Source of the DNA: Candidatus Yanofskybacteria bacterium RIFCSPHIGHO2_01_FULL_43_32
Lineage (GTDB): Bacteria > Patescibacteriota > Minisyncoccia > 2-02-FULL-40-12 > GWA2-44-9
DNA length: 64,000 nucleotides
Direction of reading: 5' to 3'
NCBI GenBank assembly: GCA_001794125.1
Contig: MGJF01000002.1
Span: 37,751 to 101,750 of the forward strand
The notes under the pieces: generated by a model
The model's input: only the letters and a program-made list of their open reading frames with translations
Told to the model about the DNA's origin: nothing
Databases searched by the model: none
Made by a program: the position numbers and the translations under genes
Shown: in pieces, positions 16,696-40,467 of the stretch
Layout: the number at the start of each line of letters is the position of its first letter
Numbering within the stretch: the stretch's first letter is position 1

Positions 16696-16697
16696 AA

Positions 16698-21594: not shown

Positions 21595-24312
21595 ATGGTA
21601 AATAATCCTAAAATAATTGTCACTGTCGGACCGGCTACCCACAGTTTAAATCATCTTGAAAAAATGAAGGACTTGGGTGTGGATTTTATCCGCGTCAACA
21701 TGTCTCACTCAACAACAGACTACCTTAAAGATTTTATCAGGCTTTCTAAAAAGGCCGACTTGCCGTTTATAATCGATACTCAAGGTTCACAGGTCAGGAC
21801 TGGTGATTTATCAAGACCCTCAATACAGCTGAAAGAAAATCAATACATAAAAATTTACACTAAGACATCATTGGACTTAAAGGACAATGGCCTATGCCTT
21901 AAACCGTCGGGCATAACAGAAAAACTTGAACCGGGGGATTTGATATACATTGATTTTAATAGTTTGGTTTTAAGGGTTAGCGATGTTTCAACATCTTCAA
22001 GAGGATATATTACTGCTCAAGCCATCAGTGATGGATGCGCCGGCAACAACAAGGCTGTTGTCATCGAATCAGTTTTTAGGAATAAAATAAATTTGCCGGT
22101 TTTAAGTCCGGTTGATTTTGAGGCGATTAAAATTGGTCTGAGAGAAAAAATCGGATATATAGCCGTCTCGTTTGTTCGTCGTGTTGAGGACATTGATTTT
22201 GTCAGAAAAGCCACAAAAAATTCAATGAAAATAATTTCAAAGATTGAATGTGTTGACGCCTTGAAAAACCTGGATGCTATAGTTAAGAAAACTGACCTTA
22301 TCCTTATTGACCGCGGAGACTTAAGCAAGGAAATACCCCTTACAGCCATACCAATGGCTCAAAAAATGATAATGAACACAGCCAAGAAATATAAAAAAGA
22401 CGTATTTGTAGCAACAAATCTTCTGGAGACAATGATTAGCAGTAAAAAGCCAACCCGGGCAGAAGTAAATGATATAGCGAATACTATTTTAGATGGAGCT
22501 GCAGGACTTGCGTTGGCAGCGGAGACTGCAATCGGCAAATATCCTTTGGAATCCATAGCTACACTTAAAAAGGTAATAAGCCACACAATATCTCCTGCGG
22601 TAAATTTGCATGACGGTAACTCATTGATTACCAGACCTCATGGCGGGAAATTGGTTAATTTAATACCCGATTCTATGCCAAGTTCAAAATACCTTGCATC
22701 ACTGAAGAAAGTTAAACTTGATCCAGAACATCAGATGGACGTTGAACTTATGGGTGTCGGTGTTTATAGTCCGCTTGAAGGATTTATGATCAAAAAGGAT
22801 TTGGATAGTGTTGCCGACAAAATGCGCCTTGCTAACGGCACTATCTGGCCGCTGCCTATTGTTCTTGATGTAAGCAAAGAAGAGTCCTGTAAGTTTAAAA
22901 TCGGGGATGCCATTGCCCTTATGGACAGTGAAAATTCGGTTATGGCGATATTGCACTTAGCCCAAAAATACCCTTTTAATAAAAAGAGGATTATAAAAAA
23001 AATATTTGGTACTGACAGTATAAAACACCCTGGCGTTAAGATGATGAATAACATGAAAGACATTTTTATTGGAGGCAAGATAGAGTTTATCAAAAAAAGA
23101 AATTCCGAGACAAAAGGGTATGAATTAACTCCCGCTCAGGTAAGAAAGCTCATTGAAGAAAAGGGGTGGCTAAAGGTAATAGGGTTTCACACCCGGAATG
23201 TTATTCACCGCAGCCACGAGTTTATACAACTCGAAGCATTAAGAAAGGAATTTGGTGACGGGCTTTTTGTTCATCCGATTATAGGCAAGAAAAAACCGGG
23301 GGACTTTAATGCAAAATATATTATTAGGTCATACGAAACAATGATGAAAAATTTTTATCCAAAGGATTCCGTTATCTTTTCGGTTTTCTCAAGCTATTCC
23401 CGTTATGCCGGTCCAAGAGAGGCTTTGTTTACGGCTATTTGCCGGAAGAACTACGGGTGCAGTCATTTTATTGTCGGCCGGGATCATACCGGGGTTGGTG
23501 ATTTTTATAAACCGACTGCGTCTCATGATATTTTTGATAAGTTTCCGGATCTTGGAATAAAACCAGTTAAATTCCACCAAGTCTTTTACTCCAAGAAATT
23601 AGACCAGCATATGCATGAAAAAAATGTTTCCCGTCATGATGAAAAAGATAAACTTCATATCAGTGGAACCCAAGCCCGCAAAATGTTTTTGAACGGAAAA
23701 ATACCGCCGAGTTGGTTTATGAGGCCGGAAATTTCAAAACCAATTCTGACTGCCATCAAAAGAGGTGAAAAAGTTTTTGTGAAAAACGCTGTGGTTGTTT
23801 GGTTTACTGGACTAAGCGGTTCTGGAAAAACAACAATTGCTACCGCACTCTCAGGGAAACTTTCTAAGATGGGTAAAAAGGTCCTTATGTTGGATGGTGA
23901 CGAAATAAGAAAGACCATCAGCAAAGATTTGGGTTTTTCAAGAGACGATATCAGGGAAAACAATAAACGCATTGCTGAGTTGGCAAAATCAAAGATGGGA
24001 GACTACGACTTTATTCTAGTTCCCGTTATTTCACCCCTTAAAGAAGATCGGCTAACTGCCAGAAAATTAATAGGGGACAATTTTGTGGAGCTTTTTGTTA
24101 ATGCTTCTTTGGAAAAATGCAAAGAACGGGACGTTAAGGGTCTTTATGGAAAATATGCTGCCGGTTTGGTCGTTAATCTTATAGGAGCCAGTTCATCTAG
24201 TTCATATGAATGCCCTGAAAATCCTGACATAGAGATAAATACTGAAGATTCAATTGTTAACAAAAACATCAATCAGGTAATCAAAACTTTGAATAAGAAA
24301 AAAATAATATGA
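21595..24312 (+). CDS. tri-domain fusion: pyruvate-kinase-like domain + sulfate adenylyltransferase (ATP sulfurylase) + adenylylsulfate (APS) kinase
   Basis: aa 1-330 PK-like (IVTVGPATHS...RVNMSHS...IIDTQGSQVRTG; SKIECVDALKNLDAIVKKTDLILIDRGDLSKEIP; KKPTRAEVNDIANTILDGAAGLALAAETAIGKYPLESI); middle GFHTRNVIHRSHEFIQ (ATP-sulfurylase QTRNxxHRAH); C-terminal VVWFTGLSGSGKTT P-loop (CysC-like). Confidence 0.8.
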   Translation: MVNNPKIIVTVGPATHSLNHLEKMKDLGVDFIRVNMSHSTTDYLKDFIRLSKKADLPFIIDTQGSQVRTGDLSRPSIQLKENQYIKIYTKTSLDLKDNGLCLKPSGITEKLEPGDLIYIDFNSLVLRVSDVSTSSRGYITAQAISDGCAGNNKAVVIESVFRNKINLPVLSPVDFEAIKIGLREKIGYIAVSFVRRVEDIDFVRKATKNSMKIISKIECVDALKNLDAIVKKTDLILIDRGDLSKEIPLTAIPMAQKMIMNTAKKYKKDVFVATNLLETMISSKKPTRAEVNDIANTILDGAAGLALAAETAIGKYPLESIATLKKVISHTISPAVNLHDGNSLITRPHGGKLVNLIPDSMPSSKYLASLKKVKLDPEHQMDVELMGVGVYSPLEGFMIKKDLDSVADKMRLANGTIWPLPIVLDVSKEESCKFKIGDAIALMDSENSVMAILHLAQKYPFNKKRIIKKIFGTDSIKHPGVKMMNNMKDIFIGGKIEFIKKRNSETKGYELTPAQVRKLIEEKGWLKVIGFHTRNVIHRSHEFIQLEALRKEFGDGLFVHPIIGKKKPGDFNAKYIIRSYETMMKNFYPKDSVIFSVFSSYSRYAGPREALFTAICRKNYGCSHFIVGRDHTGVGDFYKPTASHDIFDKFPDLGIKPVKFHQVFYSKKLDQHMHEKNVSRHDEKDKLHISGTQARKMFLNGKIPPSWFMRPEISKPILTAIKRGEKVFVKNAVVVWFTGLSGSGKTTIATALSGKLSKMGKKVLMLDGDEIRKTISKDLGFSRDDIRENNKRIAELAKSKMGDYDFILVPVISPLKEDRLTARKLIGDNFVELFVNASLEKCKERDVKGLYGKYAAGLVVNLIGASSSSSYECPENPDIEINTEDSIVNKNINQVIKTLNKKKII

Positions 24313-25247
24313 AAATAAGGCTTGGCAAAAGACAACCCTTGACGAAAAAACTCCTTTTAGTTGAGGGCATAGCAAGAGCTGGTAAATTTTTATTGGCTAA
24401 TGTTTTGAGCGGGTTTGAGCACATTGAGCCGGTTCAACTGTATGGTTTATTAGAACAAATACCCGTGTGGGCTAATTTGGGATTAATTGATAGAAATACC
24501 GCAAAAGAGATTTTGAGGTTAGAAATTGATACACATTGTTATGAAATGCTTACTGGACGAAATTTTAACTACAGAGTGTCGGACAAATCATCAATTTTTA
24601 ATATTCCACGTTATCAAAAATACCTTGCCCGCTCTAAAGAGAAAGACATAGACAAGATAATGAAAGAATATGATCAGGAAAAACCGTTCAGTTTTTTCAT
24701 TATGCACGAACTGATGCCGTACATCGGAATATATTTTGAAACCTTTCCAGAGTTGAAGGTTATAAGCATCAGGAGAAATCCTGTTGACTTGGTTTTTTCA
24801 TGGTACAAACGCGGTATCGGTCAAAGATATGGCAAGGATCCTAAATTTTTCAAAATTCCTATTCAGGGCAAATATGGCTCCGCTCCCTGGTTTTTACCCG
24901 AATGGAATAAGCTTTCGGAAATAGATAGGATAATACTTTCCATCAAAAAACTCTTCGACATGTATGAGGTGTCGTACCGGTGCTTGCCTCACAAGTATAA
25001 AAAAAGAATTATGTTTGTTTCATGTGAAGATGTTTTGAGTAATCCTGTGAGCGTTATTGATAGATTGGGAAATTTTTTGGGCAAAAAAGCTCTTCCAGAA
25101 ATGAAGTCTATTTTAAAAAGAGAAAAACTGCCTGTAATTAAAAAGCTTGAATTAAGGAGCCAAAATCTAGAGGAAATTAAAAAATTGGCTTCAAAAAAGT
25201 ATTTAAATGTTTTAATTAAACTAAAAAGGGAATATGAAAAATCTTAA
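24309..25247 (+). CDS. putative PAPS-dependent carbohydrate sulfotransferase
   Basis: GIARAGKF 5'-PSB-like loop and ISIRRNPVDLVFSWY resembling the 3'-PB RxxRxPxDxxxS motif; ATGA overlap with the PAPS-synthase fusion. Confidence 0.5.
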   Translation: MKIRLGKRQPLTKKLLLVEGIARAGKFLLANVLSGFEHIEPVQLYGLLEQIPVWANLGLIDRNTAKEILRLEIDTHCYEMLTGRNFNYRVSDKSSIFNIPRYQKYLARSKEKDIDKIMKEYDQEKPFSFFIMHELMPYIGIYFETFPELKVISIRRNPVDLVFSWYKRGIGQRYGKDPKFFKIPIQGKYGSAPWFLPEWNKLSEIDRIILSIKKLFDMYEVSYRCLPHKYKKRIMFVSCEDVLSNPVSVIDRLGNFLGKKALPEMKSILKREKLPVIKKLELRSQNLEEIKKLASKKYLNVLIKLKREYEKS

Positions 25248-25971
25248 GCCAAAAATATTAGCATATATTCCTGCTCGAGGCGGATCAAAAAGAATACCGG
25301 GCAAAAATATAAAGAAGTTTGCCGGTAAGCCTCTCATTGCTTACACTATTGAGCAGGCTTTAGCATGCAAGCTTGCGGACAAAATCGTAGTTGATACTGA
25401 CTCCAAAGAAATAGCAAAAATTGCAAAAGAGCATGGGGCAGAAGTTTCCTTTTTGCGTCCAGCTAAACTGGCTCAAGACAAATCAATGATTATAGATAGT
25501 ATAATCTATACTCTTGACCGACTTGAAAAAGAACAGAATTACAAACCCACTCATCTGTTAATCCTTCAAACCACTTCCCCTTTGCGTGAACTAAAGGACA
25601 TAATGGATTGTTGGAAATTAATGCAGTCAACGAATGCAACCACAGTATTAACTGTCTGCCCAACTCATCCTTGTTTTTACCACATGAAAGAGAATAAAGA
25701 CATTACCATTGTTAATGGAAACGAGGGTATATCTACAAATATGCAGGCTTGGCCGGAAGGATATATTTTGAATGGCTGTTTTGTCTATATTGTTGATATT
25801 CCCACACTAAGAAAAGAACGTCGTGTTATCACTGCCAAGACCAAGGCGGTCGTCTGTCCCAAATGGCGATCCGCTGACCTTGATACGCCGGAAGAATGGG
25901 TAATGGCTGAAGTTTTGTATAAGAATAAAAAGAAAATAGAAAAACAAATAAAAAAACATGAATCGAAATAA
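25234..25971 (+). CDS. CMP-nonulosonic acid synthetase (acylneuraminate cytidylyltransferase NeuA/LegF family)
   Basis: ILAYIPARGGSKRIPGKNIKKFAGKPLIAYTIEQA signature of CMP-NeuAc/Leg synthetases. Confidence 0.75.
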   Translation: MKNLKPKILAYIPARGGSKRIPGKNIKKFAGKPLIAYTIEQALACKLADKIVVDTDSKEIAKIAKEHGAEVSFLRPAKLAQDKSMIIDSIIYTLDRLEKEQNYKPTHLLILQTTSPLRELKDIMDCWKLMQSTNATTVLTVCPTHPCFYHMKENKDITIVNGNEGISTNMQAWPEGYILNGCFVYIVDIPTLRKERRVITAKTKAVVCPKWRSADLDTPEEWVMAEVLYKNKKKIEKQIKKHESK

Positions 25972-26980
25972 ATTAAAACTCTTAGTCATCGGATTAGGTT
26001 CAATGGGAAAACGGAGGATTAGAAACCTTATTGCCAATGGTGTTAAAAAAGATAATATTTTTGGTTTTAATATTTCAAAAGAACGCTGTAAAACAATTGG
26101 TGAGGAATATGGTATTAAAACAAGCGATGATTTTAAATTGGCTGTAAAAAGTTTTAGCCCAGATGTCTTCATGATTTCTACACCACCGGATACTCATGAT
26201 AAGTATTTTCTTTATGCCATTAAACACAAAAAGCATTTTTTTGTGGAACATCCGACAACAGATAAGGGTTATAATAAACTGCTGACTAAAACTCCAAAAG
26301 GTATTGTGGGTGTCCCGTCTAATAGCTGGAGGTTTAATCCGTCTGTCAAGAAAATTAAAGAATTGTTGGAAAAAGGAACTATCGGAAAAATTCTTGCTTT
26401 TCAGTATCACATGGGCCAGTATCTCCCTGATTGGCATCCATGGGAGGACTTCAGGAATGTCTATTTTTCCAAGAAAGAAACCGGCGCTTGCAGGGAAATG
26501 TTTGCCTTTGAATTGGGTTGGCTTACTTTTGCGCTTAATTTAAGCGAGGTAAAAAACATTTTGGGTATAACAAAAAAATTATCTGATTTGGACATGAGCG
26601 CAGATGATTTCTATTCGGCGGTTTTAAATTTTAAAAACAAAGTAAGTGCTACAATGGTAATTGATTTATTGTCTAGAAAACCTTTCCGAACATTGAAAAT
26701 TATCGGTTCGAAGGGTGTGCTTGAGTGGGAGTGGCTTGATTACACAATAAAAATTCATAAATCAAGAAATGATTCCCAGTTGATACGGCTCAACAAAGGC
26801 AGAAACGAGAAACTTTATGTCACCACGGAAGATATGTATGAGGAAGAAATAGAGTTGTTTTTAGAGGCTGTTGAGGGTAAAAGACTTTTTCCGTTCACCT
26901 TCAAAGAAAATCATCATTTTTTAAAAGTTTTATTTGCCTTAGAAAAAAGCAGTAAAACGGGACAGGTTGTTTCACCATGA
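25958..26980 (+). CDS. Gfo/Idh/MocA-family NAD(P) oxidoreductase
   Basis: LKLLVIGLGSMGKRRIRNL Rossmann N-terminus. Confidence 0.65.
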   Translation: MNRNKLKLLVIGLGSMGKRRIRNLIANGVKKDNIFGFNISKERCKTIGEEYGIKTSDDFKLAVKSFSPDVFMISTPPDTHDKYFLYAIKHKKHFFVEHPTTDKGYNKLLTKTPKGIVGVPSNSWRFNPSVKKIKELLEKGTIGKILAFQYHMGQYLPDWHPWEDFRNVYFSKKETGACREMFAFELGWLTFALNLSEVKNILGITKKLSDLDMSADDFYSAVLNFKNKVSATMVIDLLSRKPFRTLKIIGSKGVLEWEWLDYTIKIHKSRNDSQLIRLNKGRNEKLYVTTEDMYEEEIELFLEAVEGKRLFPFTFKENHHFLKVLFALEKSSKTGQVVSP

Positions 26981-28032
26981 TTAAAATCGGCTCTAAAACT
27001 ATTTCCGAAAAATCACCAGTTTTTATTGTTGCTGAAGCCGGAGTAAATCATAACGGTAATTTAAAATTGGCTAAAAAACTAATTGATGTTGCCGTCCTGG
27101 CCGGTGTTGATGCTGTAAAATTTCAGACTTTTAATCCCGACACATTGGTTGCTAAAAATGTTTCCAAAGCCGACTATCAGGCAAAAAATGAAAAAAGGTT
27201 AAAGAAAGAAGAAAGTCAGTACGAAATGCTGAAGCGGTTAATGTTGCCCAGAGAATGGCATAAGGAATTAAAAAAATATGCCGAAAGCAAGGGTTTGATA
27301 TTTTTATCTACTCCGTTCTCTTTGGATGATGCCGTTTTCTTGCGTAAGCTCGGAGTGAAAGCGATTAAAGTAGGTTCAACTGATACTGAAAACTTGCCCT
27401 ATCTTGCCAAGATTGCAAAATGGAATCTGCCGATTATTTTGTCTACCGGAATGTCGGCATTGCCGGAGATAAAAGAAGCAGTTAGAACTATTCAAAAGGC
27501 GGGCAATGATAAACTAATCGTTCTGCATTGCACAACCAATTATCCGACACCCTTTGAAGAAGTTAACCTGAGAGCCATAGCCACTCTTCAAAGAGAACTA
27601 AAAAACATACCTATAGGTTTTTCCGAACACACAGTCGGAATAGAAGCAACTGTAGCTTCAGTAGCTCTCGGCGCAAGAGTTATAGAAAAACACTTCACTC
27701 TAGATAAAAATTTTCCCGGACCTGATCATTCGGCTTCTCTTGAGCCTGATGAATTAAAACAATTGGTTTCTTCAGTTAGGCGCATTGAAACCGCTATGGG
27801 CACGGGCAATAAAGTGTTGTTTGTCAGCGAGAAAAAAATTGCTGAGGTTGCGCGAAAGAGCTTGGTTGTCGCCCGTGACATACCCTCCGGAAAACAGTTA
27901 ACCGCTGAGGACGTCTCCGTAAAAAGACCGGGTACAGGAATAAAGCCGAAATTTTTGAATAAAATTATCGGAAAAACAGCGAAAGTAAACTTGCAAAAAG
28001 ATCAGTTGTTAAGTTGGGATTTAATTAAATGA
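26977..28032 (+). CDS. nonulosonic acid synthase (NeuB/LegI/PseI family, PEP-condensing)
   Basis: PVFIVAEAGVNHNGNLKLAKKLIDVAVLAGVDAVKFQTF; C-terminal SAF-like domain. Confidence 0.85.
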   Translation: MIKIGSKTISEKSPVFIVAEAGVNHNGNLKLAKKLIDVAVLAGVDAVKFQTFNPDTLVAKNVSKADYQAKNEKRLKKEESQYEMLKRLMLPREWHKELKKYAESKGLIFLSTPFSLDDAVFLRKLGVKAIKVGSTDTENLPYLAKIAKWNLPIILSTGMSALPEIKEAVRTIQKAGNDKLIVLHCTTNYPTPFEEVNLRAIATLQRELKNIPIGFSEHTVGIEATVASVALGARVIEKHFTLDKNFPGPDHSASLEPDELKQLVSSVRRIETAMGTGNKVLFVSEKKIAEVARKSLVVARDIPSGKQLTAEDVSVKRPGTGIKPKFLNKIIGKTAKVNLQKDQLLSWDLIK

Positions 28033-29177
28033 TTAATAAAAAAATAGCTTACATATCGGGTACGAGAGCAGATTTCGGGTTAATGACTCCTGTTTTGGCT
28101 GCAATTAAAAAAAGCAAGAAACTTGATTTAAAACTATATGTAACCGGTATACATCTGATGCCGGAATTCGGTAATACGATCAAAGAGATTAAAAAACAAT
28201 TTCCGGAGATAATTGAAGTTAAGGCCGTATTTGAAAGTGATGAAAAACAAGCCATGGCTGAGTTTGCGAGTATTTTGATAAGTAAGTTGGTCAGTCTTTT
28301 TGAAAAAGACAGGCCGGATTTTGTGCTAACACTAGGTGATCGGCCAGAGATGATTTCTGTTGCTTTGGTCTGTTTGTATCTCGGAATTCCTACGGGTCAA
28401 ATCCATGGGGGCGATAAAAGCGCTACTGTGGATGAAATTGCCAGACATGCAATTACAAAGCTTTCTCATTTGCATTTTCCTGCAACAAGAGAGGCGGCGG
28501 AACGAATCAAAAAAATGGGCGAGGAAAGTTGGCGGATAAAAGTTGTGGGCGCGCCAGCTTTAGACGTAATTATGAATGAACAATTGCCGACCAGAGAGCA
28601 ACTTTTTAAAAACCTTGGTCTTGACCTAAAAAAGAAAGTAATTTTAGTTACCCAGCATCCGGTAAGTGAAGAATACGAAAAATCCGGAAGCCAAATGGCA
28701 GAGATTATATCCGCGATAAAAACTTTTGAATTGCCCGTAGTGATTATCTATCCGCATGCTGATGCCGGAGGGAGAAGAATAATATCCGAGATCAATAAGG
28801 AAAACAAAAATCCAAATTTTCATATTTTCCCGAGCTTGCCTCATAAAGATTTTTTAGCTCTTGAGAGGGAAGCGGCCGTCTGGGTCGGGAATTCTAGTGC
28901 TGCCATGATAGAATCAGCTTCTTTCGGGGTTCCCATAGTTAATATTGGTGGTCGCCAATCAGATCGACAAAGAGGACTTAATGTTTTAAATGTCGGTTAT
29001 GATAGGAATAAAATTAAGAGGGCTATGAAAAAATCTTTGTTTGATACTGCCTATCTTAAAACTCTAAAAAAAATAAAAAATCCATGGGGTGATGGAAAAA
29101 CCGGACAACGGGTGATGAAAACGCTTGAAAATATTAAAATTGATTCAAAATTATTAAATAAGCAGATAACTTATTAG
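28029..29177 (+). CDS. hydrolysing UDP-N-acetylglucosamine 2-epimerase (NeuC/LegG family)
   Basis: IAYISGTRADFGLMTPVL, GDRPEMISVALVCLYLGIPTGQIHGGD. Confidence 0.8.
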   Translation: MINKKIAYISGTRADFGLMTPVLAAIKKSKKLDLKLYVTGIHLMPEFGNTIKEIKKQFPEIIEVKAVFESDEKQAMAEFASILISKLVSLFEKDRPDFVLTLGDRPEMISVALVCLYLGIPTGQIHGGDKSATVDEIARHAITKLSHLHFPATREAAERIKKMGEESWRIKVVGAPALDVIMNEQLPTREQLFKNLGLDLKKKVILVTQHPVSEEYEKSGSQMAEIISAIKTFELPVVIIYPHADAGGRRIISEINKENKNPNFHIFPSLPHKDFLALEREAAVWVGNSSAAMIESASFGVPIVNIGGRQSDRQRGLNVLNVGYDRNKIKRAMKKSLFDTAYLKTLKKIKNPWGDGKTGQRVMKTLENIKIDSKLLNKQITY

Positions 29178-29278
29178 AAAAGAAAGGTGTTTTTGCGCAA
29201 TAAATAAATAATTAGTCAATGATGACATCTATTAAAAAACATGTTAAAAATAAGCAGCTTTTTAATAAGGGCCCTGAC

Positions 29279-30088
29279 ATGTCTGAGCGCGAAATAAAAA
29301 ACGTGATATTTATGGGTAAAAAGCCCTTGGCGGTAAGTGCTTTTGAGTATTTGCTTCAAAGGGGGATTAACGTAAAACTTGTTGTTGCAATGGTGGATGA
29401 ACCATTTGAAAACAATCTGGCCAATGCCGCTTTGTCTCATGGCATACCGTTATATACCGATCCGAAAGAGATTTATGAACTTATTGATTCAGGTGATGAA
29501 ATGTTCAGAGATGTTGATTTAGTTATTTCTTATCTTTTTTGGAAAAGAATGAAAAATGGCCTGATCAAATTGCCTAAGTGGGGATGCGTTAATTTTCATC
29601 CAGCACCACTTCCGGATTATAAGGGAAGAGCGGGATATAATACTGCAATTCTTGATAAACGTGATGATTTCGGGGTAAGTGCTCATTTTATAGATTCGGA
29701 GGAGTTTGACGTTGGGCCAATAATTAAAGTTACTAAATTTAAAATTGAACACGACAAAGAAACAGCTTATTCACTGGAGGCAAAAAGCCAGCAAAAAATG
29801 TTGGAACTGTTTAAAGAGGTAATTAATCTATTTACAAGTAACGAGGAGATTCAAATCTCTCCAAATTCCGGGGGGCTACACTTAACCGGTGAACAACTTG
29901 AAGAAATGAAAAAAGTTGATCTAGCCAAAGATTCTGCAGAAGAAATAGACCGGAAGGTAAGAGCTTTTTTCTTTCCTCCTTATACCGGGGCTAAACTAAT
30001 TGTAGGAGAAAAAGAATTTACTTTAGTTAATCAGGGGATATTAAATTTATTTCATGAAAAAATTAATAAAAAATTACCCAATAGCTAG
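29279..30088 (+). CDS. formyltransferase-fold sugar N-acyl(formyl)transferase
   Basis: VIFMGKKPLAVSAFEYL and WGCVNFHPAPLPDYKGRAGYNTAIL (Fmt catalytic core). Start chosen at ATG 29279 with AAGGG RBS rather than the ORF-track 29219. Confidence 0.6.
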   Translation: MSEREIKNVIFMGKKPLAVSAFEYLLQRGINVKLVVAMVDEPFENNLANAALSHGIPLYTDPKEIYELIDSGDEMFRDVDLVISYLFWKRMKNGLIKLPKWGCVNFHPAPLPDYKGRAGYNTAILDKRDDFGVSAHFIDSEEFDVGPIIKVTKFKIEHDKETAYSLEAKSQQKMLELFKEVINLFTSNEEIQISPNSGGLHLTGEQLEEMKKVDLAKDSAEEIDRKVRAFFFPPYTGAKLIVGEKEFTLVNQGILNLFHEKINKKLPNS

Positions 30089-31190
30089 GCCTCATATCAC
30101 TCATACGGAAAGACGGCATGTTTTGGAGGTTTTAAGTTCCGGGTCTTTAAGTTTGGGACCAAAATATGCAATATTTGAAAAAGAATTTGCTAAAAAAATA
30201 GGAACTAAATTTGCATGTACGGTTTCCAGTGGTACGGCCGGTTTACATTTGGCTATGATAGCTGCGAACATACAACCAGGAGATGAAGTTATTACATCTC
30301 CTTTTTCTTTTGTGGCTTCAGCAAATTGTATTTTATACATGAACGCTACGCCGGTTTTTGTGGATATAGATTCTCTGACATACAACATGAACCCCGATAA
30401 AATAGAAGCGGCGATTACTTCTAAAACGAAGGCTATTTTAGTAGTTCATATTTTTGGCCAAACATCAGACATGACCCGAATCATGCAAATTGCCAAAAAA
30501 CATAATCTTAAGATTATAGAGGATGCCTGCGAATCTGTATGCGCAACCCATAAAGGGAAAAAGGCCGGAACTTTCGGTGAAACTGCCGTGTTTGCTTTTT
30601 ATCCAAACAAACAGATGACGACCGGTGAAGGCGGAATGATAACCACGAATAATGAAAAAATATATAAATTATGCGGGAGTTTAAGAAATCAAGGACGAGC
30701 AGAAAACATGCAGTGGCTAGACCATGAAAGATTGGGATACAACTATAGAATGGATGAAGTGAGCGCAGCTCTCGGTATCAGTCAGTTGGCAAGGCTGGAT
30801 AAAATGATAGAACAACGCAGGATTATCGCAGGATGGTATAATGAATATCTGAAACCGTACAAAGAATTGGTGCAAATACCCCAAGTATCACCAGAGAACA
30901 CTCATACATGGTTTGTTTATGTCGTTACTCTAAGCCATGCCAAAATTAACCGGGATAAATTAATTACAATGTTGTCTCGGTTGGGTGTCAGCACTAAACC
31001 TTATCTGCCGTCTATTCATCTTTTCAGTTTTTATAAAAACAGATTCGGCTATAAAAAAGGTGATTTCCCGATATCAGAAAAGATAAGTCATTCCGCTTTG
31101 GCTTTGCCGTTTTATATCGGTCTGAAAAAGGGGGACATTAAGTACATAGTCAAAACATTAATTGACACCATTAAAAGCTATGAAAAATGA
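30054..31190 (+). CDS. DegT/DnrJ/EryC1/StrS PLP-dependent sugar aminotransferase (PseC/LegC-like)
   Basis: TVSSGTAGLHLAM, AFYPNKQMTTGEGGMITT with the conserved Lys present. Confidence 0.85.
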   Translation: MKKLIKNYPIARPHITHTERRHVLEVLSSGSLSLGPKYAIFEKEFAKKIGTKFACTVSSGTAGLHLAMIAANIQPGDEVITSPFSFVASANCILYMNATPVFVDIDSLTYNMNPDKIEAAITSKTKAILVVHIFGQTSDMTRIMQIAKKHNLKIIEDACESVCATHKGKKAGTFGETAVFAFYPNKQMTTGEGGMITTNNEKIYKLCGSLRNQGRAENMQWLDHERLGYNYRMDEVSAALGISQLARLDKMIEQRRIIAGWYNEYLKPYKELVQIPQVSPENTHTWFVYVVTLSHAKINRDKLITMLSRLGVSTKPYLPSIHLFSFYKNRFGYKKGDFPISEKISHSALALPFYIGLKKGDIKYIVKTLIDTIKSYEK

Positions 31191-32184
31191 ATTTAAAAAT
31201 AAAATAATTTTAGTTACTGGCGGTACCGGATCTATTGGCTCAGAAATAGTCAAACAACTTTTGGAATATAAGCCCAGGCAGATTAGGGTATTATCAAGAA
31301 ATGACAGCAAGCAATATCACTTGTTAGAAAAACTTGGCCATCCTAAAAACGTCAGAACACTCATTGGGGATATTAGGGACTCCAACCGTCTTGATTTGGC
31401 TTTTGAAAATGTGGATGTAGTTTTTCACACTGCCGCTTTAAAACATGTTTCCTTGTGCGAATACAATCCTCTCGAGACTATTAAAACTAATGTTTTAGGT
31501 TCTCAAAATGTTATAGATGCTGCTTTTAAAAACGGTGCTGAAAAGGTTATAGCTATTTCAACCGATAAGGCCGCAAACCCCGGCAATGTGATGGGCTTAT
31601 CAAAATTAATGATGGAAAAACTCATGACGAATACTGGTTATTTTTCCGGAGGAAAAACAAAGCTTTCGTGTGTAAGGTTCGGTAATGTGGCATGGTCAGA
31701 AGCCTCAGTCTTGCCATTGTGGAAAAGTCAGGCTGAAAATAAAGGACAAATAAATCTTACTGATAGGGATGCAACCAGATTTTTTATGTCAACAGACCAG
31801 GCGGTTAAATTAGTCTTAAAAGCGGCTGAAATTATGCAAGGAGGCGAGGTTTTTATTTTAAAGATGCCTTCAATTAAAATGGCTGATCTTGCCCGTGTTT
31901 TTGTTAATAAACATTTTTCAAATAAAAAAATTAAAATTAAATCCACCAACAAAAGAATCGGTGACAGAACACACGAGGAATTGTTTGACTTTAACGATGA
32001 TCAGAAATTGGTGCTTGAAGATAAGCAGATGTTTGTCATATTGCCCAGAGAATCAAGAGAAAGAAATAAAATATATTCAGTGCAACCCAAAATGTCTGCA
32101 TATAAGGGATTTAAAACAATTACCAAGACAACCTATGCTTCCCAAGATTATTTAAACAAAGATGCGATAGGAAAATTGGTTTAA
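31162..32184 (+). CDS. nucleotide-GlcNAc 4,6-dehydratase (PseB/LegB/FlaA1/CapD family)
   Basis: IILVTGGTGSIGSEIVKQLLEYKPRQIRVLSRNDSKQ short-form CapD N-terminus. Confidence 0.8.
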   Translation: MTPLKAMKNEFKNKIILVTGGTGSIGSEIVKQLLEYKPRQIRVLSRNDSKQYHLLEKLGHPKNVRTLIGDIRDSNRLDLAFENVDVVFHTAALKHVSLCEYNPLETIKTNVLGSQNVIDAAFKNGAEKVIAISTDKAANPGNVMGLSKLMMEKLMTNTGYFSGGKTKLSCVRFGNVAWSEASVLPLWKSQAENKGQINLTDRDATRFFMSTDQAVKLVLKAAEIMQGGEVFILKMPSIKMADLARVFVNKHFSNKKIKIKSTNKRIGDRTHEELFDFNDDQKLVLEDKQMFVILPRESRERNKIYSVQPKMSAYKGFKTITKTTYASQDYLNKDAIGKLV

Positions 32185-32190
32185 CACAGA

Positions 32191-33162
32191 ATGTTTAATG
32201 TTTACATAATCGGGGCGGGTCAAATAGGAAGTCGCCACTTCCAGGCTTTAAAAAGGGTCAAATTTCCCCTGAGTGTAACCGTGGTTGATCCATCTGAACA
32301 GTCACTCGCAGTTGCCAAAAAGCGATATGAAGAAATGCCAAAAGGAAGGTATCGCCATGAGATAAAATATCTTCAAGAAATTGATACCGGACAGAAAATT
32401 GACTTGATTATTCTTGCCACTACATCTAATGTGCGGGCCAAGATTATTAAGGATGTTTTGAAAAAAAATCAGGTACGCTATTTCATTCTGGAGAAGATCG
32501 TTTTTAATAAAAAGAGTGACTATTATGCCGTTAAAAATATTTTATCAAAATCAAAAATTAAAGCCTGGGTTAATTTACCCAGAAGAATTAGGCCGATTTA
32601 TAAAAAGATCAAAGAACAATTAATTGGCCGTGTAGTTTCTGTTCGAGGTATTGGCAGCCAATGGGGTCTGGCATGCAATGCTGTACATTTTCTCGACCTG
32701 ATTTCTTATCTTACCGGAGATTGTGATTATACTGTTGACACTCATCATCTGGATAAAAAAATATCATTAAGCAAAAGAAGGGGCTTCTTGGAAATTCATG
32801 GAACTCTTTATGCTAATTTCAAAAAAGGAAGTCGTTGTGAACTTTCCAGTCATACTTCCGGAAACGCCCCACTTCTCATTGATATATCTAATGACAATAT
32901 ACGATATATTATACGGGAACCGGAGGGCAAATATTGGGCTTCTAATGCAAGGGATAATTGGCGCTGGGAAGAGGTTTCATTTAGAACCCCATTAGTAAGC
33001 GAAACAACAACTTTAATAGTAGAAAATATTTTGACAAACGGCGATTGCCCCCTTACTTCATATGAAGAATCTATAAAAACACACCTATTATTGCTGGAGC
33101 CATTAAGACATTTTTTGAATAAAAATTCAGAAAAAAAATATGAACACTACCCATTCACCTAA
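32191..33162 (+). CDS. NAD-binding oxidoreductase (Gfo/Idh/MocA-like)
   Basis: VYIIGAGQIGSRHFQAL Rossmann N-terminus. Confidence 0.45.
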   Translation: MFNVYIIGAGQIGSRHFQALKRVKFPLSVTVVDPSEQSLAVAKKRYEEMPKGRYRHEIKYLQEIDTGQKIDLIILATTSNVRAKIIKDVLKKNQVRYFILEKIVFNKKSDYYAVKNILSKSKIKAWVNLPRRIRPIYKKIKEQLIGRVVSVRGIGSQWGLACNAVHFLDLISYLTGDCDYTVDTHHLDKKISLSKRRGFLEIHGTLYANFKKGSRCELSSHTSGNAPLLIDISNDNIRYIIREPEGKYWASNARDNWRWEEVSFRTPLVSETTTLIVENILTNGDCPLTSYEESIKTHLLLLEPLRHFLNKNSEKKYEHYPFT

Positions 33163-34084
33163 AATATTGCTAATCGGTTCTGGAAATATGGCTAAAGAAT
33201 ACGCCAGAGTATTGAAGGTCTTGAAAAAGGACTTTTTGGTGATAGGTAGAGGCGAAAAAAGCGCTTCAATTTTTGAAAAAGATGTCGGGGTACCAGTCGT
33301 AACGGGTGGTTTAAATAAATGGCTTGAAAATAAAACAAACAAAATACCGTCGGTGGCGATTGTTGCTACCAACGAAGAACAGCTCGGTCCGATAGCTCGC
33401 CTTCTTGTTCAACGTGGTGTGAAGTCTGTCCTTGTTGAAAAGCCGGGAGGCATGAATCTGAGCGATCTCACTAAGACTCAAAAAATTGCATTGAAAATGG
33501 GAGCGGAGGTTTTTGTTGCTTATAACCGCCGGTTTTATGCATCCACAATCAAAGCTAAAGAATTTATAAAACAAGATGGCATTTCTTCTTTTACTTTTGA
33601 TTTTACTGAACGAAGCGACCGTATAGCAAAGGCGGCTTTCTCTGCTAATGTCAAAAAAGAATGGCTTTTGACAAATTCAAGTCATGTAATTGATCTGGCG
33701 TTCTTCTTGGGAGGTAAACCAAAAAAAATAAAATGTTTTATGGCTGGAGGTCTGGATTGGCATCCGAAAGCTTCCATATATGCCGGAGCGGGGGTCAGTG
33801 AAAACGGAGCGCTATTTTCCTATCATGCAAACTGGGAGTCGGCGGGCCGATGGGGTGTGGAAATTCTGACACCAAAACGTAAACTTATATTAAGACCTTT
33901 AGAAAAACTGACTATTCAAAATAAGGATAGTTTGGTGACGGAGGAAGTGTTGTTGAATGATAGGTTGGACATTAATTTCAAGCCAGGTTTGTACCTTCAG
34001 GTTAAATCCCTCCTTGGCTCAAAAGCTAATTTGTTGACCATTCAAGAACAGGTTAAAAATGTAAGGTATTATAACTTAATTTAA
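33140..34084 (+). CDS. Gfo/Idh/MocA-family oxidoreductase
   Basis: ILLIGSGNMAKEYARVL; 23-nt overlap with the upstream gene. Confidence 0.55.
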   Translation: MNTTHSPKILLIGSGNMAKEYARVLKVLKKDFLVIGRGEKSASIFEKDVGVPVVTGGLNKWLENKTNKIPSVAIVATNEEQLGPIARLLVQRGVKSVLVEKPGGMNLSDLTKTQKIALKMGAEVFVAYNRRFYASTIKAKEFIKQDGISSFTFDFTERSDRIAKAAFSANVKKEWLLTNSSHVIDLAFFLGGKPKKIKCFMAGGLDWHPKASIYAGAGVSENGALFSYHANWESAGRWGVEILTPKRKLILRPLEKLTIQNKDSLVTEEVLLNDRLDINFKPGLYLQVKSLLGSKANLLTIQEQVKNVRYYNLI

Positions 34085-34089
34085 GAAGA

Positions 34090-34938
34090 ATGATTATTAT
34101 AAGATTATCGTTGGGTATGGGCAATAATTTATTTCAATATGCGTTGGGCCGTCGTTTGGCACTGGAACGCGAGACGGAATTATATTTGGATTTTTCGGGT
34201 GAAAATGAGAATCGCCGTCGCTATGCTTTGGGTTATATTTCTAAATTCAACATGATCAAAGCTGTAGCGATCAAAAGAGAAGTTGGAAAAATAAAATTAT
34301 TAAACAAATTATTTTTCTTAAACCCCAACTACAGAAACGCTGTCATTAAAGAGAGTGGAAATACTTTTGATCAAACTGTTATTAATGCTCCTAAGGACGC
34401 CTATCTTATGGGTTACTGGCAGAGTGAAAGATATTTTAAACCCGCGGAGAGTATTATAAGACAAGACCTTACACTTAAAGAACCGCAAGGGGAAAAATAT
34501 CAAGATCTTTTGGATAGAATTACACTATCTAATTCCGTGTCAGTTCATATCCGGCGCGGTGATTATTTGTTGGAAAAAAATTTACGCTTATTTCACCCAT
34601 GCACATCTGATTATTATCTTAAAGCCGAAGCGTTAATATCAGAAAAAGTATCTTCGCCTGAGTTGTTTATTTTTTCTGACGATATTGAATGGGTAAAACA
34701 AAATATCCCGTTTCGTTTTCCGGCCACTTTTGTTTCTGATGGCAGCCTAGCTGACTATCAGGAGCTTATGTTGATGAGCGCATGCAAACACAATATTATT
34801 GCCAACAGCACTTTTAGCTGGTGGGGCGCCTGGCTTAACAATAATCCTCAAAAAATAGTAATTACCCCTAAAAAATGGTTTATTGACCCGGCCACGGACG
34901 AAAAGGATTTAATACCTCCGACATGGGTTAAGATATAA
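34090..34938 (+). CDS. GT11-family alpha-1,2-fucosyltransferase-like (fucosyl- or colitosyl-transferase)
   Basis: GMGNNLFQYALGRRLA (GxGNQxFQYA) and VSVHIRRGDY (HxRRGDY) GT11 motifs. Confidence 0.8.
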   Translation: MIIIRLSLGMGNNLFQYALGRRLALERETELYLDFSGENENRRRYALGYISKFNMIKAVAIKREVGKIKLLNKLFFLNPNYRNAVIKESGNTFDQTVINAPKDAYLMGYWQSERYFKPAESIIRQDLTLKEPQGEKYQDLLDRITLSNSVSVHIRRGDYLLEKNLRLFHPCTSDYYLKAEALISEKVSSPELFIFSDDIEWVKQNIPFRFPATFVSDGSLADYQELMLMSACKHNIIANSTFSWWGAWLNNNPQKIVITPKKWFIDPATDEKDLIPPTWVKI

Positions 34939-34964
34939 AATGAGCAGATTATAATATAAAAGCC

Positions 34965-35822
34965 ATGAACTATTCTCCCAAAAAAATAATCTCCAGAATA
35001 AAAAAGCGGTATCAAGAATACCAAAATTTTTGGCACTTAAGTGATGTTTTACAAAAAAACAACATCCTTCTTGATTCAAAAAAAGGTAAAACTTGCTTCA
35101 TTTTAGGTAATGGACCATCAATAAATAACCAGGACTTAACCTGCTTGGTCAATAAAGAAACCTTTGTAATGAATAATTTTTGGCGACATCCTCAGTATAA
35201 AATCATTCGTCCCAAGTATTTGTTGGCTGGTGATTTGGCAAGTTATGCTCAAAATAAAAGACCGGAAGTAAGGGGCGTGGATTTATCGGCCAGTAGTGTT
35301 GCCACATCACAGGTTCCCGAAACGAAGTTGTTTTTAAATAGCATAGCCAAAAAATATGTTGAAGAAAATAAATTGTTTTTACAAAATCAGATTTTTTATG
35401 TTCTGCAACAGGGTCACATGGATGAAAAGTTGCGTTTTAATATTGATCCAAGTAGGCCCATACCACTTCCTAAAAATTCTGCCATATTAGCTTTGATTAT
35501 TGCCGTACATATGGGTTTTGAAATCATTTATCTTCTTGGGTGTGAGCATGATTTTTTGGCTTATCCTGCCAAAAGGTCATATGCTGGTTTTGTGGGTTTT
35601 TATGATAAACCTAAAAAATCTTCTTCGGATATACCCGAAGTTCCTTTGTATCAAGAAGCTCGTTATGAAAATATGATAGAAAGCTGTTTGAAACTTTTCA
35701 GAAACTACAGACTATTGTCGGAAAAAATCGCTAAGCTGTATCCTAATGTCAAAATTTATAATGCAACCCCAAACAGCTTTTTGGACGTATTCCCAACTGT
35801 TAATTTTGAAGATATTAAATAA
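34965..35822 (+). CDS. GNGPS-motif glycosyltransferase, GT42 sialyltransferase (CstII)-like / Maf (DUF115)-like
   Basis: FILGNGPSINNQDL...FVMNNF...AILALIIAVHMGFEIIYLLGCEHDF parallels CstII AGNGPSL...FRCNQF...AVAIALGYKEIYLSGIDFY. Confidence 0.45.
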   Translation: MNYSPKKIISRIKKRYQEYQNFWHLSDVLQKNNILLDSKKGKTCFILGNGPSINNQDLTCLVNKETFVMNNFWRHPQYKIIRPKYLLAGDLASYAQNKRPEVRGVDLSASSVATSQVPETKLFLNSIAKKYVEENKLFLQNQIFYVLQQGHMDEKLRFNIDPSRPIPLPKNSAILALIIAVHMGFEIIYLLGCEHDFLAYPAKRSYAGFVGFYDKPKKSSSDIPEVPLYQEARYENMIESCLKLFRNYRLLSEKIAKLYPNVKIYNATPNSFLDVFPTVNFEDIK

Positions 35823-36796
35823 TGGAACCAAAAATCTCGGTTATAATGACGGCATATAATTCGTCTAAGCACATCGGCGAAGCGATTTTAAGTATTTTAA
35901 ATCAGACACTTGAGGAATTTGAGCTCATTGTTGTTGACGACTGTTCACTTGATGACACATCTGAAATCGTAAGACGATATGCTGATAAGGACCCGAGAGT
36001 GATTTTGTTAAAAAATACGGTCAACTTAAAACCTGCTCTTTCCAGAAATAAAGCACTAGAAATTGCGAGGGGTAAATATGTCGCCGTATTGGATTCTGAC
36101 GACGTTTCACTACCTAATCGTTTAAGAGAACAGTATGATTATCTTGAAAGAAATCAGGACGTAGTTTTGGTTGGTTGCGCTGCCGAAATCATTGATGATA
36201 ATGGAAAAATTCTGGGACGAAAATATTATCCTAAAGATTTTAAAGAAATTAAATTTGTCTTGCTTTTAAAGAACCCGTTTGTTCATTCGGGAATTTTGGG
36301 TAGAAAACAAGCTATGACAGAGTTTGGATATTCAAACGACCATCTTCACTCCGAAGATTTAAAGTTATATTCAAATCTTGTCAGTAAATACAAAATTACA
36401 AATCTGGACAACATCCTTATAAAATATCGCCAAAGCGCCGGTTCCGTTACACTGGAACCGGAAACCAGACAAATACAACTGGCTAACGCAAACAAAATCC
36501 ACCACGACCTGATTAATCAATATCTGTTCGCTTCACCTGTTAAAGTAAAGATTGCCATTGAAACTATCCATAAAATGAGACACGACTTGTTTTCTATTTT
36601 AAGCACGATAGTTTTCTGCCGGCGCCTAACCCTTTCTTATGTTGAAAAAGAGCAGCCAAATATCGAAACCCGCAAAACTATTTGGAGTATATATTCCAAA
36701 GAAAAAGAGATGCTTCTTGGTCAAATTTTCCGTGTTCATGTGCCAAAATTATATTCCGCCGCTAAAAAAACCTACCGAGTTTTATCTGGCAATTAA
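35822..36796 (+). CDS. GT2-family glycosyltransferase
   Basis: ISVIMTAYNSSKHIGEAILSILNQT...ELIVVDDCSLDDT, DSDD. Confidence 0.8.
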   Translation: MEPKISVIMTAYNSSKHIGEAILSILNQTLEEFELIVVDDCSLDDTSEIVRRYADKDPRVILLKNTVNLKPALSRNKALEIARGKYVAVLDSDDVSLPNRLREQYDYLERNQDVVLVGCAAEIIDDNGKILGRKYYPKDFKEIKFVLLLKNPFVHSGILGRKQAMTEFGYSNDHLHSEDLKLYSNLVSKYKITNLDNILIKYRQSAGSVTLEPETRQIQLANANKIHHDLINQYLFASPVKVKIAIETIHKMRHDLFSILSTIVFCRRLTLSYVEKEQPNIETRKTIWSIYSKEKEMLLGQIFRVHVPKLYSAAKKTYRVLSGN

Positions 36797-36799
36797 AAA

Positions 36800-39936: not shown

Positions 39937-40467
39937 TATTGCCGCGGCGACCACGGTTGTCCAGAGGCCGTCTTTGTTGCCGATGGCTGATTGAGTGTAA
40001 TTTGTCGTCTTGAATATTTGTTCGGAGGCTTTGAATATTTGTTCTCTTTCGTCCCATGCGGTATCGGGGTCAAACTCTATGCCCAATGTGGTTGCCAGCA
40101 TTTGCGCGGCCAGGTCTTCCGCGTAATCGCCGGCTTTTTCATCTGTTTCCCCGAAAGGGTGGTGTTCCGACAGATAACCGTATTGATTCGGATCTTGCGG
40201 AATGGCAACGCCTATCGAAGCCGAAATCAACCTGTTCGGCTCATTGGTGGCATTGCGGGCGATGACGGCGTGAACCACCGAACCCGGCGGCAGTAATTTA
40301 ATTCCTTCTTCGCGGGTTATTTTTTTAACATTCGGCGGGTAGATGCTGGATACCGCAACTAAATTGTACGGCGCGACTCCGGCGGCGCGCAACGCCAGCT
40401 CGAAAGAAGTTAAATATTCTTTGTGCGTTCCCGAACCTTTGGTGAAAAATATTTTTGTCGGCAGCAT
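39925..40467 (-). CDS. pdaD: pyruvoyl-dependent arginine decarboxylase
   Basis: [39 protein letters not shown] and [12 protein letters not shown] align with M. jannaschii PdaD [38 protein letters not shown] / ISAAISVAIPKD; Ser-Ser self-cleavage site present. Confidence 0.75.

Follow-up and report, generated by a model that had tools for sequence, protein, structure and literature searches.

The stretch of DNA analysed here (64 kb, hereafter the window) belongs to a Candidatus Yanofskybacteria genome of the candidate phyla radiation (CPR, or Patescibacteria), known only as a metagenome-assembled genome (MAG), and carries at 25234-35822 a module of eleven genes that points to the synthesis and display of a formylated nonulosonic acid (NulO). 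With a probability of roughly two in three, the operon that contains this module encodes a pathway to cytidine monophosphate (CMP)-activated 5-acetamido-7-formamido-3,5,7,9-tetradeoxynon-2-ulosonic acid and the transfer of this sugar onto a surface glycan exported by a Wzx-type flippase. The product would accordingly be a 7-N-formyl 5,7-diamino nonulosonic acid, and the weight given to it is split roughly in half between the configuration of legionaminic acid (Leg) and that of an L-glycero isomer.

The route that we infer, with its substrates, its order of steps, uridine diphosphate (UDP) as the donor nucleotide and N7 as the formylated position, would start with a short Polysacc_synt_2-type dehydratase that converts UDP-N-acetylglucosamine (UDP-GlcNAc) to a UDP-4-keto-6-deoxy-N-acetylhexosamine (HexNAc). 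An enzyme of the DegT family would aminate C4, and the new amine would be formylated with N10-formyl-tetrahydrofolate (N10-formyl-THF) by a formyltransferase, at a point where sister modules use a hexapeptide acetyltransferase. A NeuC-type enzyme would then remove UDP and epimerize C2, a NeuB-type synthase would condense the hexose with phosphoenolpyruvate, and a cytidylyltransferase would make the CMP-sugar, for which a Maf-like protein with a GNGPS motif (the GNGPS protein) is the likely transferase. That the dehydratase, aminotransferase and acyltransferase genes are contiguous speaks against N-acetylneuraminic acid (Neu5Ac) and in favour of a 5,7-diamino sugar.

All eleven open reading frames (ORFs) that an earlier note on this DNA had listed in the interval are present there on the + strand, most of them overlapping, and their families were assigned with Pfam and NCBIfam. 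The core block runs in the order CMP-transferase, Gfo1 (the first of three Gfo/Idh/MocA proteins), NeuB, NeuC, formyltransferase, DegT aminotransferase and dehydratase. The module is part of one long operon, since no junction within 21595-39936 exceeds 41 nt and the majority of the genes overlap.

The formyltransferase gene (29219-30088) encodes a protein that matches Pfam Formyl_trans_N (PF00551) with 54.9 bits (cutoff 26). Its true start is probably at 29279, because the homologues are 259-270 amino acids (aa) long and align from about residue 21. An Asn-His-Asp triad is catalytic in N10-formyl-THF transferases such as Fmt and ArnA, and the corresponding Asn125, His127 and Asp164 are invariant in an alignment of 40 homologues of the window enzyme; a HPxxLPxY(K/R)G motif is conserved in the same family. 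When the family profile was compared with the PDB, WbkC, the GDP-perosamine N-formyltransferase of Brucella, was matched over its full length with 80.6 bits (E about 1e-21), followed by methionyl-tRNA formyltransferase (69.6), ArnA (58.8), WlaRD (57.3) and PseJ (43.9 bits). This ranking, with WbkC above ArnA, WlaRD and PseJ, marks the enzyme as a predicted sugar N-formyltransferase whose clade is not that of PseJ. A housekeeping Fmt, which had been judged unlikely from the outset, was rejected: by profile the enzyme is nearest to sugar formyltransferases, and its gene lies within the module and is translationally coupled to it.

Direct support for the proposed exchange of an acetyl for a formyl group comes from a sister module in GCA_030697885.1 (locus L043), where the slot of the window formyltransferase is occupied by a hexapeptide acetyltransferase. 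Its gene order is CMP-transferase, NeuB, NeuC, a hexapeptide-repeat transferase of 132 aa (family confirmed by Pfam), DegT, dehydratase, Gfo2, Gfo3 and GNGPS protein, and the identities to the window proteins are 76.6% for DegT, 77.2% for the dehydratase, 65% for NeuC, 51% for Gfo2, 58% for Gfo3 and 39% for the GNGPS protein. The LegH/PglD-type N-acetyltransferase that the canonical Leg pathway requires was not found in the window, and the formyltransferase fills its slot, as the earlier note had proposed. No acetyltransferase of the PglD, LegH, NeuD or PseH type, whether hexapeptide or GNAT, was found in the 64 kb, in which stop-to-stop ORFs of at least 70 aa were searched with a PglD-like probe and tblastn was run with PseH, LegH-like, NeuD-like and L043 hexapeptide probes; a hidden acetyltransferase was rejected on the outcome of these searches. 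Formylation of N7 at the level of the UDP-sugar would be the most economical arrangement, because the only amine created in the pathway is that at C4 of the hexose, which becomes C7 of the NulO, and because the formyltransferase gene shares 35 nt with that of DegT. In a further locus (L041, 5932-7368; protein P0030), the corresponding slot, again flanked by NeuC and DegT, encodes a formyltransferase that is 55% identical to that of the window and has a PglD-like hexapeptide acyltransferase domain fused to its N-terminus. This fusion implies two acyl transfers, or O-acetylation, in that variant.

The module is not peculiar to this genome. With an alignment of the 40 formyltransferase homologues as the query, a scan of one genome per species gave 33 loci, and the ORFs of the recovered loci were compared with the window proteins by local BLASTP. 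About 20 CPR lineages show synteny of the core block. Its order is kept in L007, L009, L011, L013-L015 and L019-L021, and partly in L016-L018, L024, L028, L032 and L033. The genomes that keep it include Falkowbacteria, Yanofskybacteria, Saccharibacteria, Nomurabacteria, Magasanikbacteria and MAGs labelled Gammaproteobacteria, and Daviesbacteria, Roizmanbacteria and Kaiserbacteria have shorter versions of the module. Further versions are carried by a cultured firmicute, Thalassobacillus pellis DSM 22784 (L028), by a cyanobacterial MAG and by proteobacterial MAGs. The recurrence of the same gene order across independent genomes excludes a chance juxtaposition. On plasmid NC_016588 of Azospirillum lipoferum 4B (L040, 111763-130800), the genes for NeuB, the formyltransferase, Gfo2-like and Gfo3-like proteins, a TIGR04440-type glycosyltransferase (GT) and an aminotransferase follow one another, with neuC further downstream, so that the association of formyltransferase, Gfo2, Gfo3 and TIGR04440 protein also exists outside the CPR, in a cultured alphaproteobacterium. 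The formyltransferase ORF itself is residue-for-residue identical on MGJS01000015 (GCA_001794385.1) and on several metagenome contigs from the Rifle aquifer. The module is a conserved and horizontally shared one.

The back end of the pathway resembles that of the Leg and Neu5Ac pathways. As references, gene clusters of Escherichia coli O104-family and O145-family (both Neu5Ac), of the Leg-type E. coli O108 and O161 families, of Sphingobium (pseBCFGHI) and of Bacillus thuringiensis (genes for pseudaminic acid, Pse) were used. The sugar of the E. coli O108 antigen is presumably 8-epi-legionaminic acid (8eLeg). The synthase (26977-28032, 351 aa, NeuB and SAF domains) scores 442 bits against the NeuB/LegI model TIGR03569 (cutoff 400) and 317 bits against the PseI hidden Markov model (HMM), below its cutoff of 340. 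BLASTP aligns it with 45-47% identity to the E. coli synthases for Leg, 8eLeg and Neu5Ac, compared with 36-38% for PseI. In a neighbour-joining tree whose references were the E. coli Neu5Ac, Leg and 8eLeg synthases and two PseI sequences, with none from Campylobacter jejuni or Legionella pneumophila, it falls in a clade with the former three (100% support) and away from PseI. The phylogeny that the earlier note had suggested as a check thus separates the synthase from PseI and does not set LegI apart from Neu5Ac synthases. The 2-epimerase (28029-29177, 382 aa, Epimerase_2) is a hydrolysing enzyme of the NeuC/LegG type (TIGR03568, 396 bits, cutoff 236), with the GDP/UDP-N,N'-diacetylbacillosamine hydrolysing 2-epimerase 5xvs as its best PDB match (180 bits). 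The CMP-nonulosonate synthetase (25234-25971, 245 aa, Pfam CTP_transf_3, E=3e-24) reaches 167 bits against the PseF HMM (cutoff 206), and its best reference is LegF of the E. coli O161 family (37% identity, 131 bits by BLASTP). Judged by these scores, the back end is of the Leg/Neu type, which leaves no place for a Pse pathway, and the earlier argument for NeuC/NeuB rather than PseG/PseI logic is sustained. Close to the formyl-type module, four loci (L008, L011, L013 and L042; in the first three as second gene sets) hold a second NeuB-NeuC-CMP-transferase set, whose NeuB forms a separate clade outside both the Leg/Neu group and PseI.

The front end is of a different character. The dehydratase gene (31162-32184; predicted UDP-GlcNAc 4,6-dehydratase, Polysacc_synt_2, Pfam 305 bits) probably begins at the ATG at 31180 (334 aa), which gene callers prefer to the TTG at 31162. 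Its product scores 288 bits against the PseB HMM, below the cutoff of 408, and 72 bits against LegB, and its closest characterized relatives by BLASTP are Pen of B. thuringiensis (44% identity, 242 bits) and PseB of Sphingobium (39%, 202 bits). The aminotransferase (30054-31190, 378 aa, pyridoxal phosphate-dependent, acting on the C4 position of an NDP-4-keto-sugar; Pfam DegT 407 bits) stays below the cutoffs of both the PseC HMM (321 bits, cutoff 424) and the LegC-family HMM (280 bits, cutoff 420). By its sequence, this front end matches no known Leg type, and the characterized dehydratases nearest to it invert C5. Since the dehydratase and the aminotransferase are closer to the enzymes of the Pse pathway, the configuration at C7 and C8 is not fixed by sequence: with a retaining dehydratase the Leg configuration would result, and with an inverting one the 8eLeg or acinetaminic (L-glycero) series. 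Of the legionaminic type first proposed for the module, the back end therefore stands, and the assignment to Leg itself is not established.

Two products share the weight given to the main reading. The first, which can be put forward tentatively, is 7-N-formyl-legionaminic acid (D-glycero-D-galacto) and would need a C5-retaining dehydratase together with an aminotransferase of bacillosamine configuration. The NeuC homologue is slightly closer to enzymes of the LegG type (206 bits to LegG of E. coli O108 and 188 bits) than to NeuC of the Neu5Ac type (179 and 157 bits), and the relation of the CMP-transferase to O161-family LegF and the NeuB/LegI score above cutoff are in keeping with this product. 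The best solved relative of the aminotransferase is perosamine synthetase (277 bits, against 172 for PglE and 148 for PseC of Helicobacter pylori), which sets an equatorial amine on a D-sugar. PglF, a retaining dehydratase, has Met at the position of the Tyr of short-chain dehydrogenases/reductases (SDRs), and in the active site of the window dehydratase (STDK...MGLSK) Met likewise replaces the Tyr of PseB. However, the inverting CapE and FnlA also have Met at this position, and the best PDB scores of the dehydratase are to PseB (234 bits), Pen (230) and FnlA/CapE (200), from inverting or L-sugar pathways, as opposed to 167 bits for PglF and 94-98 bits (28-32% identity) for the dehydratases of the E. 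coli Leg clusters. Similarly, the aminotransferase scores 261 bits by BLASTP to PseC of B. thuringiensis and 191 to that of Sphingobium, as opposed to 140-169 for LegC.

The second product, which is possible but rather doubtful when taken alone, would arise by a hybrid route in which a PseB-like inverting dehydratase is combined with 2-epimerization by NeuC and condensation by NeuB, giving 7-N-formyl 8eLeg (L-glycero-D-galacto) or 7-N-formyl acinetaminic acid (Aci, L-glycero-L-altro) directly at the hexose level (for the definitions of these isomers, see PMC5595891). Such a route would take the two halves of the module as they appear, the dehydratase and aminotransferase being nearest to Pse-pathway enzymes and NeuC, NeuB and the CMP-transferase being of the Leg/Neu type. 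By our own derivation, inversion of C5 spares C1-C3, so that anti-elimination of the NeuC type is stereochemically possible, and hexoses of L-allo or L-gulo configuration map onto Aci or 8eLeg. Against this route, the isomers in Acinetobacter have been proposed to come from epimerization of CMP-Leg (PMC5595891; PMC13656337), no characterized enzyme is of the hybrid type, the PseB and PseC HMM scores lie well under the equivalog cutoffs and the score to H. pylori PseC is low. An extension of the same idea, in which the CPR share a hitherto undescribed hybrid pathway to an L-glycero 7-N-formyl NulO that is tailored by Gfo2/Gfo3, possibly sulfated, and displayed by the Maf-like protein on the epibiont surface, where it could mediate recognition by hosts or phages, is unlikely as a whole.

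It is more improbable that the module makes two separate sugars, with NeuC, NeuB and the CMP-transferase producing CMP-Neu5Ac, and the dehydratase, DegT and formyltransferase producing a UDP-2-acetamido-4-formamido-2,4,6-trideoxyhexose that is used as such. The synthase is 46% identical to the Neu5Ac synthase of E. coli O104, the two are unseparated in the tree, and formyltransferase-DegT pairs without NeuB or NeuC do occur, both in some genomes and in viral contigs (L022, L023, L027, L030 and L050-L063). However, the contiguous order NeuC-formyltransferase-DegT-dehydratase is retained in many lineages and mirrors bona fide Leg-type clusters with contiguous genes (E. coli O108 and O161 families), whereas the Neu5Ac clusters of O104 and O145 contain neither dehydratase nor aminotransferase; the LegG-type scores of the NeuC homologue also exceed those of the Neu5Ac type. 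The loci L050-L063, which are predicted viral contigs from IMG/VR, encode distant formyltransferase homologues (31-45% identity over the catalytic half) adjoining DegT, and NeuB and NeuC genes are absent from them. A Pse pathway with a PseJ-like formyltransferase is hardly credible and was rejected: PseB, PseC and PseF are the best NCBIfam matches of the dehydratase, aminotransferase and CMP-transferase, but the equivalogs of these and of PseI all stay under their cutoffs, PseG and PseH gave nothing beyond spurious short matches (E>=0.1) in tblastn searches of the whole window with Sphingobium and B. thuringiensis queries, the synthase is of the NeuB type with a hydrolysing 2-epimerase in place, and the formyltransferase is distant from PseJ.

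Several points weigh against the formylated 5,7-diamino NulO proposed here. Its pathway joins a Pse-like front end to a Leg/Neu-like back end, and the compatibility of the two halves is assumed. The inner nodes of the synthase tree have supports of 8-30%, which leaves LegI and Neu5Ac synthases unseparated. The source of N10-formyl-THF lies outside the window, and with an organism represented by a MAG the whole pathway is read from genes. Furthermore, three of the eleven genes, those of Gfo1, Gfo2 and Gfo3, are without an explained role.

These three proteins were first taken as a sign of additional redox tailoring, an interpretation that is partly right and would apply to two of them. Gfo1 (25958-26980, with the N- and C-terminal GFO_IDH_MocA domains of Pfam) belongs to the ElaA/PtmF subfamily, which is a regular member of some Leg-type clusters. 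It shares the GQYLPDW motif with the Gfo of E. coli O108, and its top PDB matches (3ezy and 3e18) are the same structures that were used for ElaA (PMC13656337). ElaA of Acinetobacter baumannii KL49 has been proposed to oxidize the C8 hydroxyl of CMP-Leg with K91 and H181 as catalytic residues (PMC13656337), and a PtmF-type Gfo gene lies beside that of the CMP-transferase in Plesiomonas, Vibrio and Campylobacter (PMC4481668). In Gfo1, EKP has become EHP and LSHELDY has become FAFELGW. In all of its CPR orthologues, the Lys of EKP is His, Ala or Val (EHT, EAT, EVG or EVT) and the His of LSHELDY is Phe or Tyr, and a new motif, GACREM, is conserved in Gfo1 and these orthologues. Gfo1 therefore lacks the Lys and His that define an active ElaA-type dehydrogenase, and it is probably non-catalytic or neofunctionalized. 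Among the reference clusters, a Gfo gene beside that of the CMP-transferase is present in the E. coli O108 family (L045), where Gfo, CMP-transferase and SDR genes lie in a row, and absent from the O161 family (L047), which has neither Gfo nor SDR; this contrast fits a role of ElaA/ElaC as a C8 epimerase and is awkward for the older assignment of PtmF/PtmA to the synthesis of GlcN-6-P.

The true accessory set is the pair of Gfo2 (32191-33162) and Gfo3 (33140-34084), each of which matches the N-terminal Pfam domain only. Gfo2 is divergent and keeps the EK and H..D motifs, while the EKP and His motifs of Gfo3 are intact. The two genes are always adjacent or nearly so (window, L016, L020, L025, L028, L040, L042 and L043); paralogy between their products was undetectable by BLASTP, and a structure search with Gfo3 returned the generic Gfo/Idh/MocA fold, with no clue to the substrate. 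A homologue of the GNGPS protein directly follows the pair in L020, L042 and L043, and L042 has no dehydratase or aminotransferase gene nearby. This adjacency and the content of L042 suggest that Gfo2 and Gfo3 act after the synthase, and by analogy with ElaA/ElaC they would probably form an oxidizing and reducing pair acting on the NulO or CMP-NulO.

The module ends with a glycosyltransferase and a candidate one. The first (34090-34938, 282 aa) belongs to family GT11 (Pfam Glyco_transf_11, PF01531, 114.1 bits, cutoff 23.9) and has no NCBIfam match. A supply of GDP-fucose for it was rejected, as the gmd and fcl candidates of the window reach 132-133 bits, where the equivalog cutoffs are 415 and 500. 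The second (34965-35822, 285 aa) is the GNGPS protein, a Maf/DUF115-like candidate nonulosonate transferase named after its ILGNGPS motif. Its match to the MptE-like family PF01973 (E=2e-5, 24.9 bits) is below the cutoff of 34.6, although many of its homologues carry a precomputed match to this family; it has no match to PF06002 and no sequence match in the PDB. Structural comparison gave figures of 15.0 with Maf of Magnetospirillum, 12.0 with archaeal MptE, 10.7 with Cst-I of C. jejuni (GT42) and 8-9 with GT29 sialyltransferases, and Foldseek found the same kind of matches with low TM-scores. The protein has the GT-A-variant fold of MptE-like proteins and sialyltransferases, with an N-terminal GxGPS nucleotide loop, and Gly48, Gly50 and His195 are invariant in its homologues. 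The resemblance to Maf and CstII that had been noticed at the outset thus holds for the fold, and membership of GT42 is putative. From its fold and its context, the GNGPS protein would be a Maf/sialyltransferase-type enzyme and is likely to be the NulO transferase. Compared with Maf (632 aa), it comprises the central catalytic domain only, and its context is a Wzx-type glycan locus and not flagellin glycosylation.

Formyltransferases in NulO pathways are already known, and the locus is a variant of known chemistry. The Leg and 8eLeg clusters of E. coli O161/O108, A. baumannii (lga/ela) and C. jejuni (leg/ptm) likewise unite a dehydratase, a C4 aminotransferase, an N-acyltransferase step, NeuC/LegG, NeuB/LegI and a CMP-transferase, and some of them share with the window a Gfo/Idh/MocA gene (PtmF/ElaA) beside that of the CMP-transferase. 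The window differs from them in that its dehydratase is of the PseB/Pen-like subfamily, its aminotransferase is apparently of another type than LegC, the acetyltransferase is replaced by a formyltransferase, and Gfo1 is without the catalytic Lys and His; no homologue of the PtmE-like nucleotidyltransferase, the ElaC/PtmA-like SDR or the KpsS-like transferase was found in a search of the window. PseJ, which according to Reimer (2018), as cited in PMC11040635, makes Pse5Ac7Fo, appears from that citation to be similar to the window enzyme in that a protein of the Fmt fold replaces the N-acetyltransferase in a 5,7-diamino NulO pathway and yields a 7-N-formyl sugar; Pse5Ac7Fo has also been found in Pseudoalteromonas (PMC3210612). 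The window enzyme, in contrast, belongs to a different clade, and would operate beside NeuC/NeuB and not PseG/PseI. WbkC and ArnA, as the best full-length profile matches, have the Asn-His-Asp triad and the HPxxLPxY(K/R)G motif in common with it, but their identity to it is low and their substrates are GDP-perosamine and UDP-4-amino-4-deoxy-arabinose (UDP-Ara4N), whereas the substrate expected here is a UDP-4-amino-4,6-dideoxy-HexNAc.

Closer in logic are Halorubrum sp. PV6, in which 5-N-formyl-Leg occurs together with a predicted formyltransferase (PMC6137143), and Candidatus Kuenenia stuttgartiensis, which has a formylated CMP-NulO and a cluster with deacetylase and formyltransferase genes (bioRxiv 10.64898/2026.04.20.719630). 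Both have Leg-type clusters (legB, legC, neuC/legG, neuB and legF) with a formyltransferase gene, and in both an N-formylated NulO was detected chemically. Halorubrum keeps acetyltransferases (LegH and a NeuD-like protein), and its sugar is the 5-N-formyl one, while the window is without an acetyltransferase; Kuenenia pairs the formyltransferase with a deacetylase, leaving one amine free, and the window has no deacetylase. The locus is distinguished by the separate clade of its formyltransferase, its Pse-like front and Leg-like back ends, the degenerate ElaA-like protein, the accessory set of Gfo2, Gfo3 and Maf-like protein, and its wide spread in the CPR. Among the papers covered by full-text searches, none links CPR/Patescibacteria to nonulosonic acids.

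The first ~43 kb of the window form an island for sugar biosynthesis and glycan assembly, in which the operon extends beyond the module on both sides. At its head lies a TIGR04440-type glycosyltransferase gene (20429-21517, + strand; NCBIfam TIGR04440, 159 bits, cutoff 70). It is followed by a fusion gene and a sulfotransferase gene for 3'-phosphoadenosine-5'-phosphosulfate (PAPS) synthesis and use (21595-25247, + strand; Pfam, NCBIfam), which are translationally coupled to the module through junction overlaps of 4 and 14 nt. The fusion protein (21595-24312, 905 aa) combines a pyruvate-kinase (PK) barrel, PUA_2, ATP sulfurylase and adenosine-5'-phosphosulfate (APS) kinase, and the sulfotransferase gene (24309-25247) comes next. 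In a library of 1.84 billion representatives, the PK-sulfurylase fusion (~720-750 aa) is found in dozens of the best 150 clusters, and the complete tri-fusion in at least three (P0361, P0362 and P0364). L007, L015 and L020 likewise have the PAPS-synthesis and sulfotransferase pair upstream of the module.

Downstream of the module, genes for assembly and export (35822-39936, + strand) encode a GT2 protein, the Wzx-type flippase, a membrane protein and a second, small GT2 (Pfam; hydropathy gives 11 transmembrane, TM, segments for the flippase and eight for the membrane protein). The 8-TM protein has an N-terminal DD motif and no Pfam match, and its gene and that of the small GT2, which occupy 38127-39936, overlap by 44 nt; the pair resembles a polyprenyl-phosphate-sugar synthase plus a GT-C transferase, and a Wzy-like polymerase would be an alternative identity for the 8-TM protein. 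Beyond the operon, a divergent gene on the - strand (40574-41911) encodes the initiating polyprenyl-phosphate glycosylphosphotransferase (Pfam Bac_transf; TIGR03025, 348 bits, cutoff 296), and a pyruvoyl-dependent arginine decarboxylase gene (39925-40467, - strand) lies between it and the glycan operon. On the other side, an unusual second sugar-tailoring block (1267-20292) holds three consecutive split transketolase/E1-like pairs (2926-4703, 6509-8387 and 9363-11364), two SDRs, a DegT protein (11463-12659), three NDP-sugar dehydratase/epimerase SDRs that fall far short of the gmd and fcl HMM cutoffs, an RmlC-like epimerase, a GHMP kinase, an aldo-keto reductase and two B12-binding radical-SAM proteins, a content that suggests a branched or C-methylated sugar.

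The remainder of the window carries housekeeping genes, such as those of SecA and iPGM, and large ORFs without a Pfam match (42995-44671, 558 aa; 53829-56222, 797 aa; 58483-59733, 416 aa), and its GC content is ~0.50 at 54-58 kb, compared with ~0.37 in the glycan island. No tRNA or Rfam features were found in the window, and a scan of it for promoters and terminators performed no better than on shuffled sequences.

Hardly anything is known of the surface chemistry of the CPR, even though their lifestyle is one of attachment to hosts. If the proposed pathway is correct, an N-formylated sialic-acid-like sugar would be a concrete and testable surface determinant of the CPR, encoded by a module that often adjoins genes for PAPS synthesis and a sulfotransferase. 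The locus also offers a second, non-PseJ clade of formyltransferases in NulO pathways and a natural exchange of acetyl for formyl between modules that are otherwise about 77% identical, and related modules are carried by the cultured T. pellis DSM 22784 and A. lipoferum 4B. Finally, the combination of a Pse-like front end with a Leg-like back end may lead directly to rare stereoisomers.

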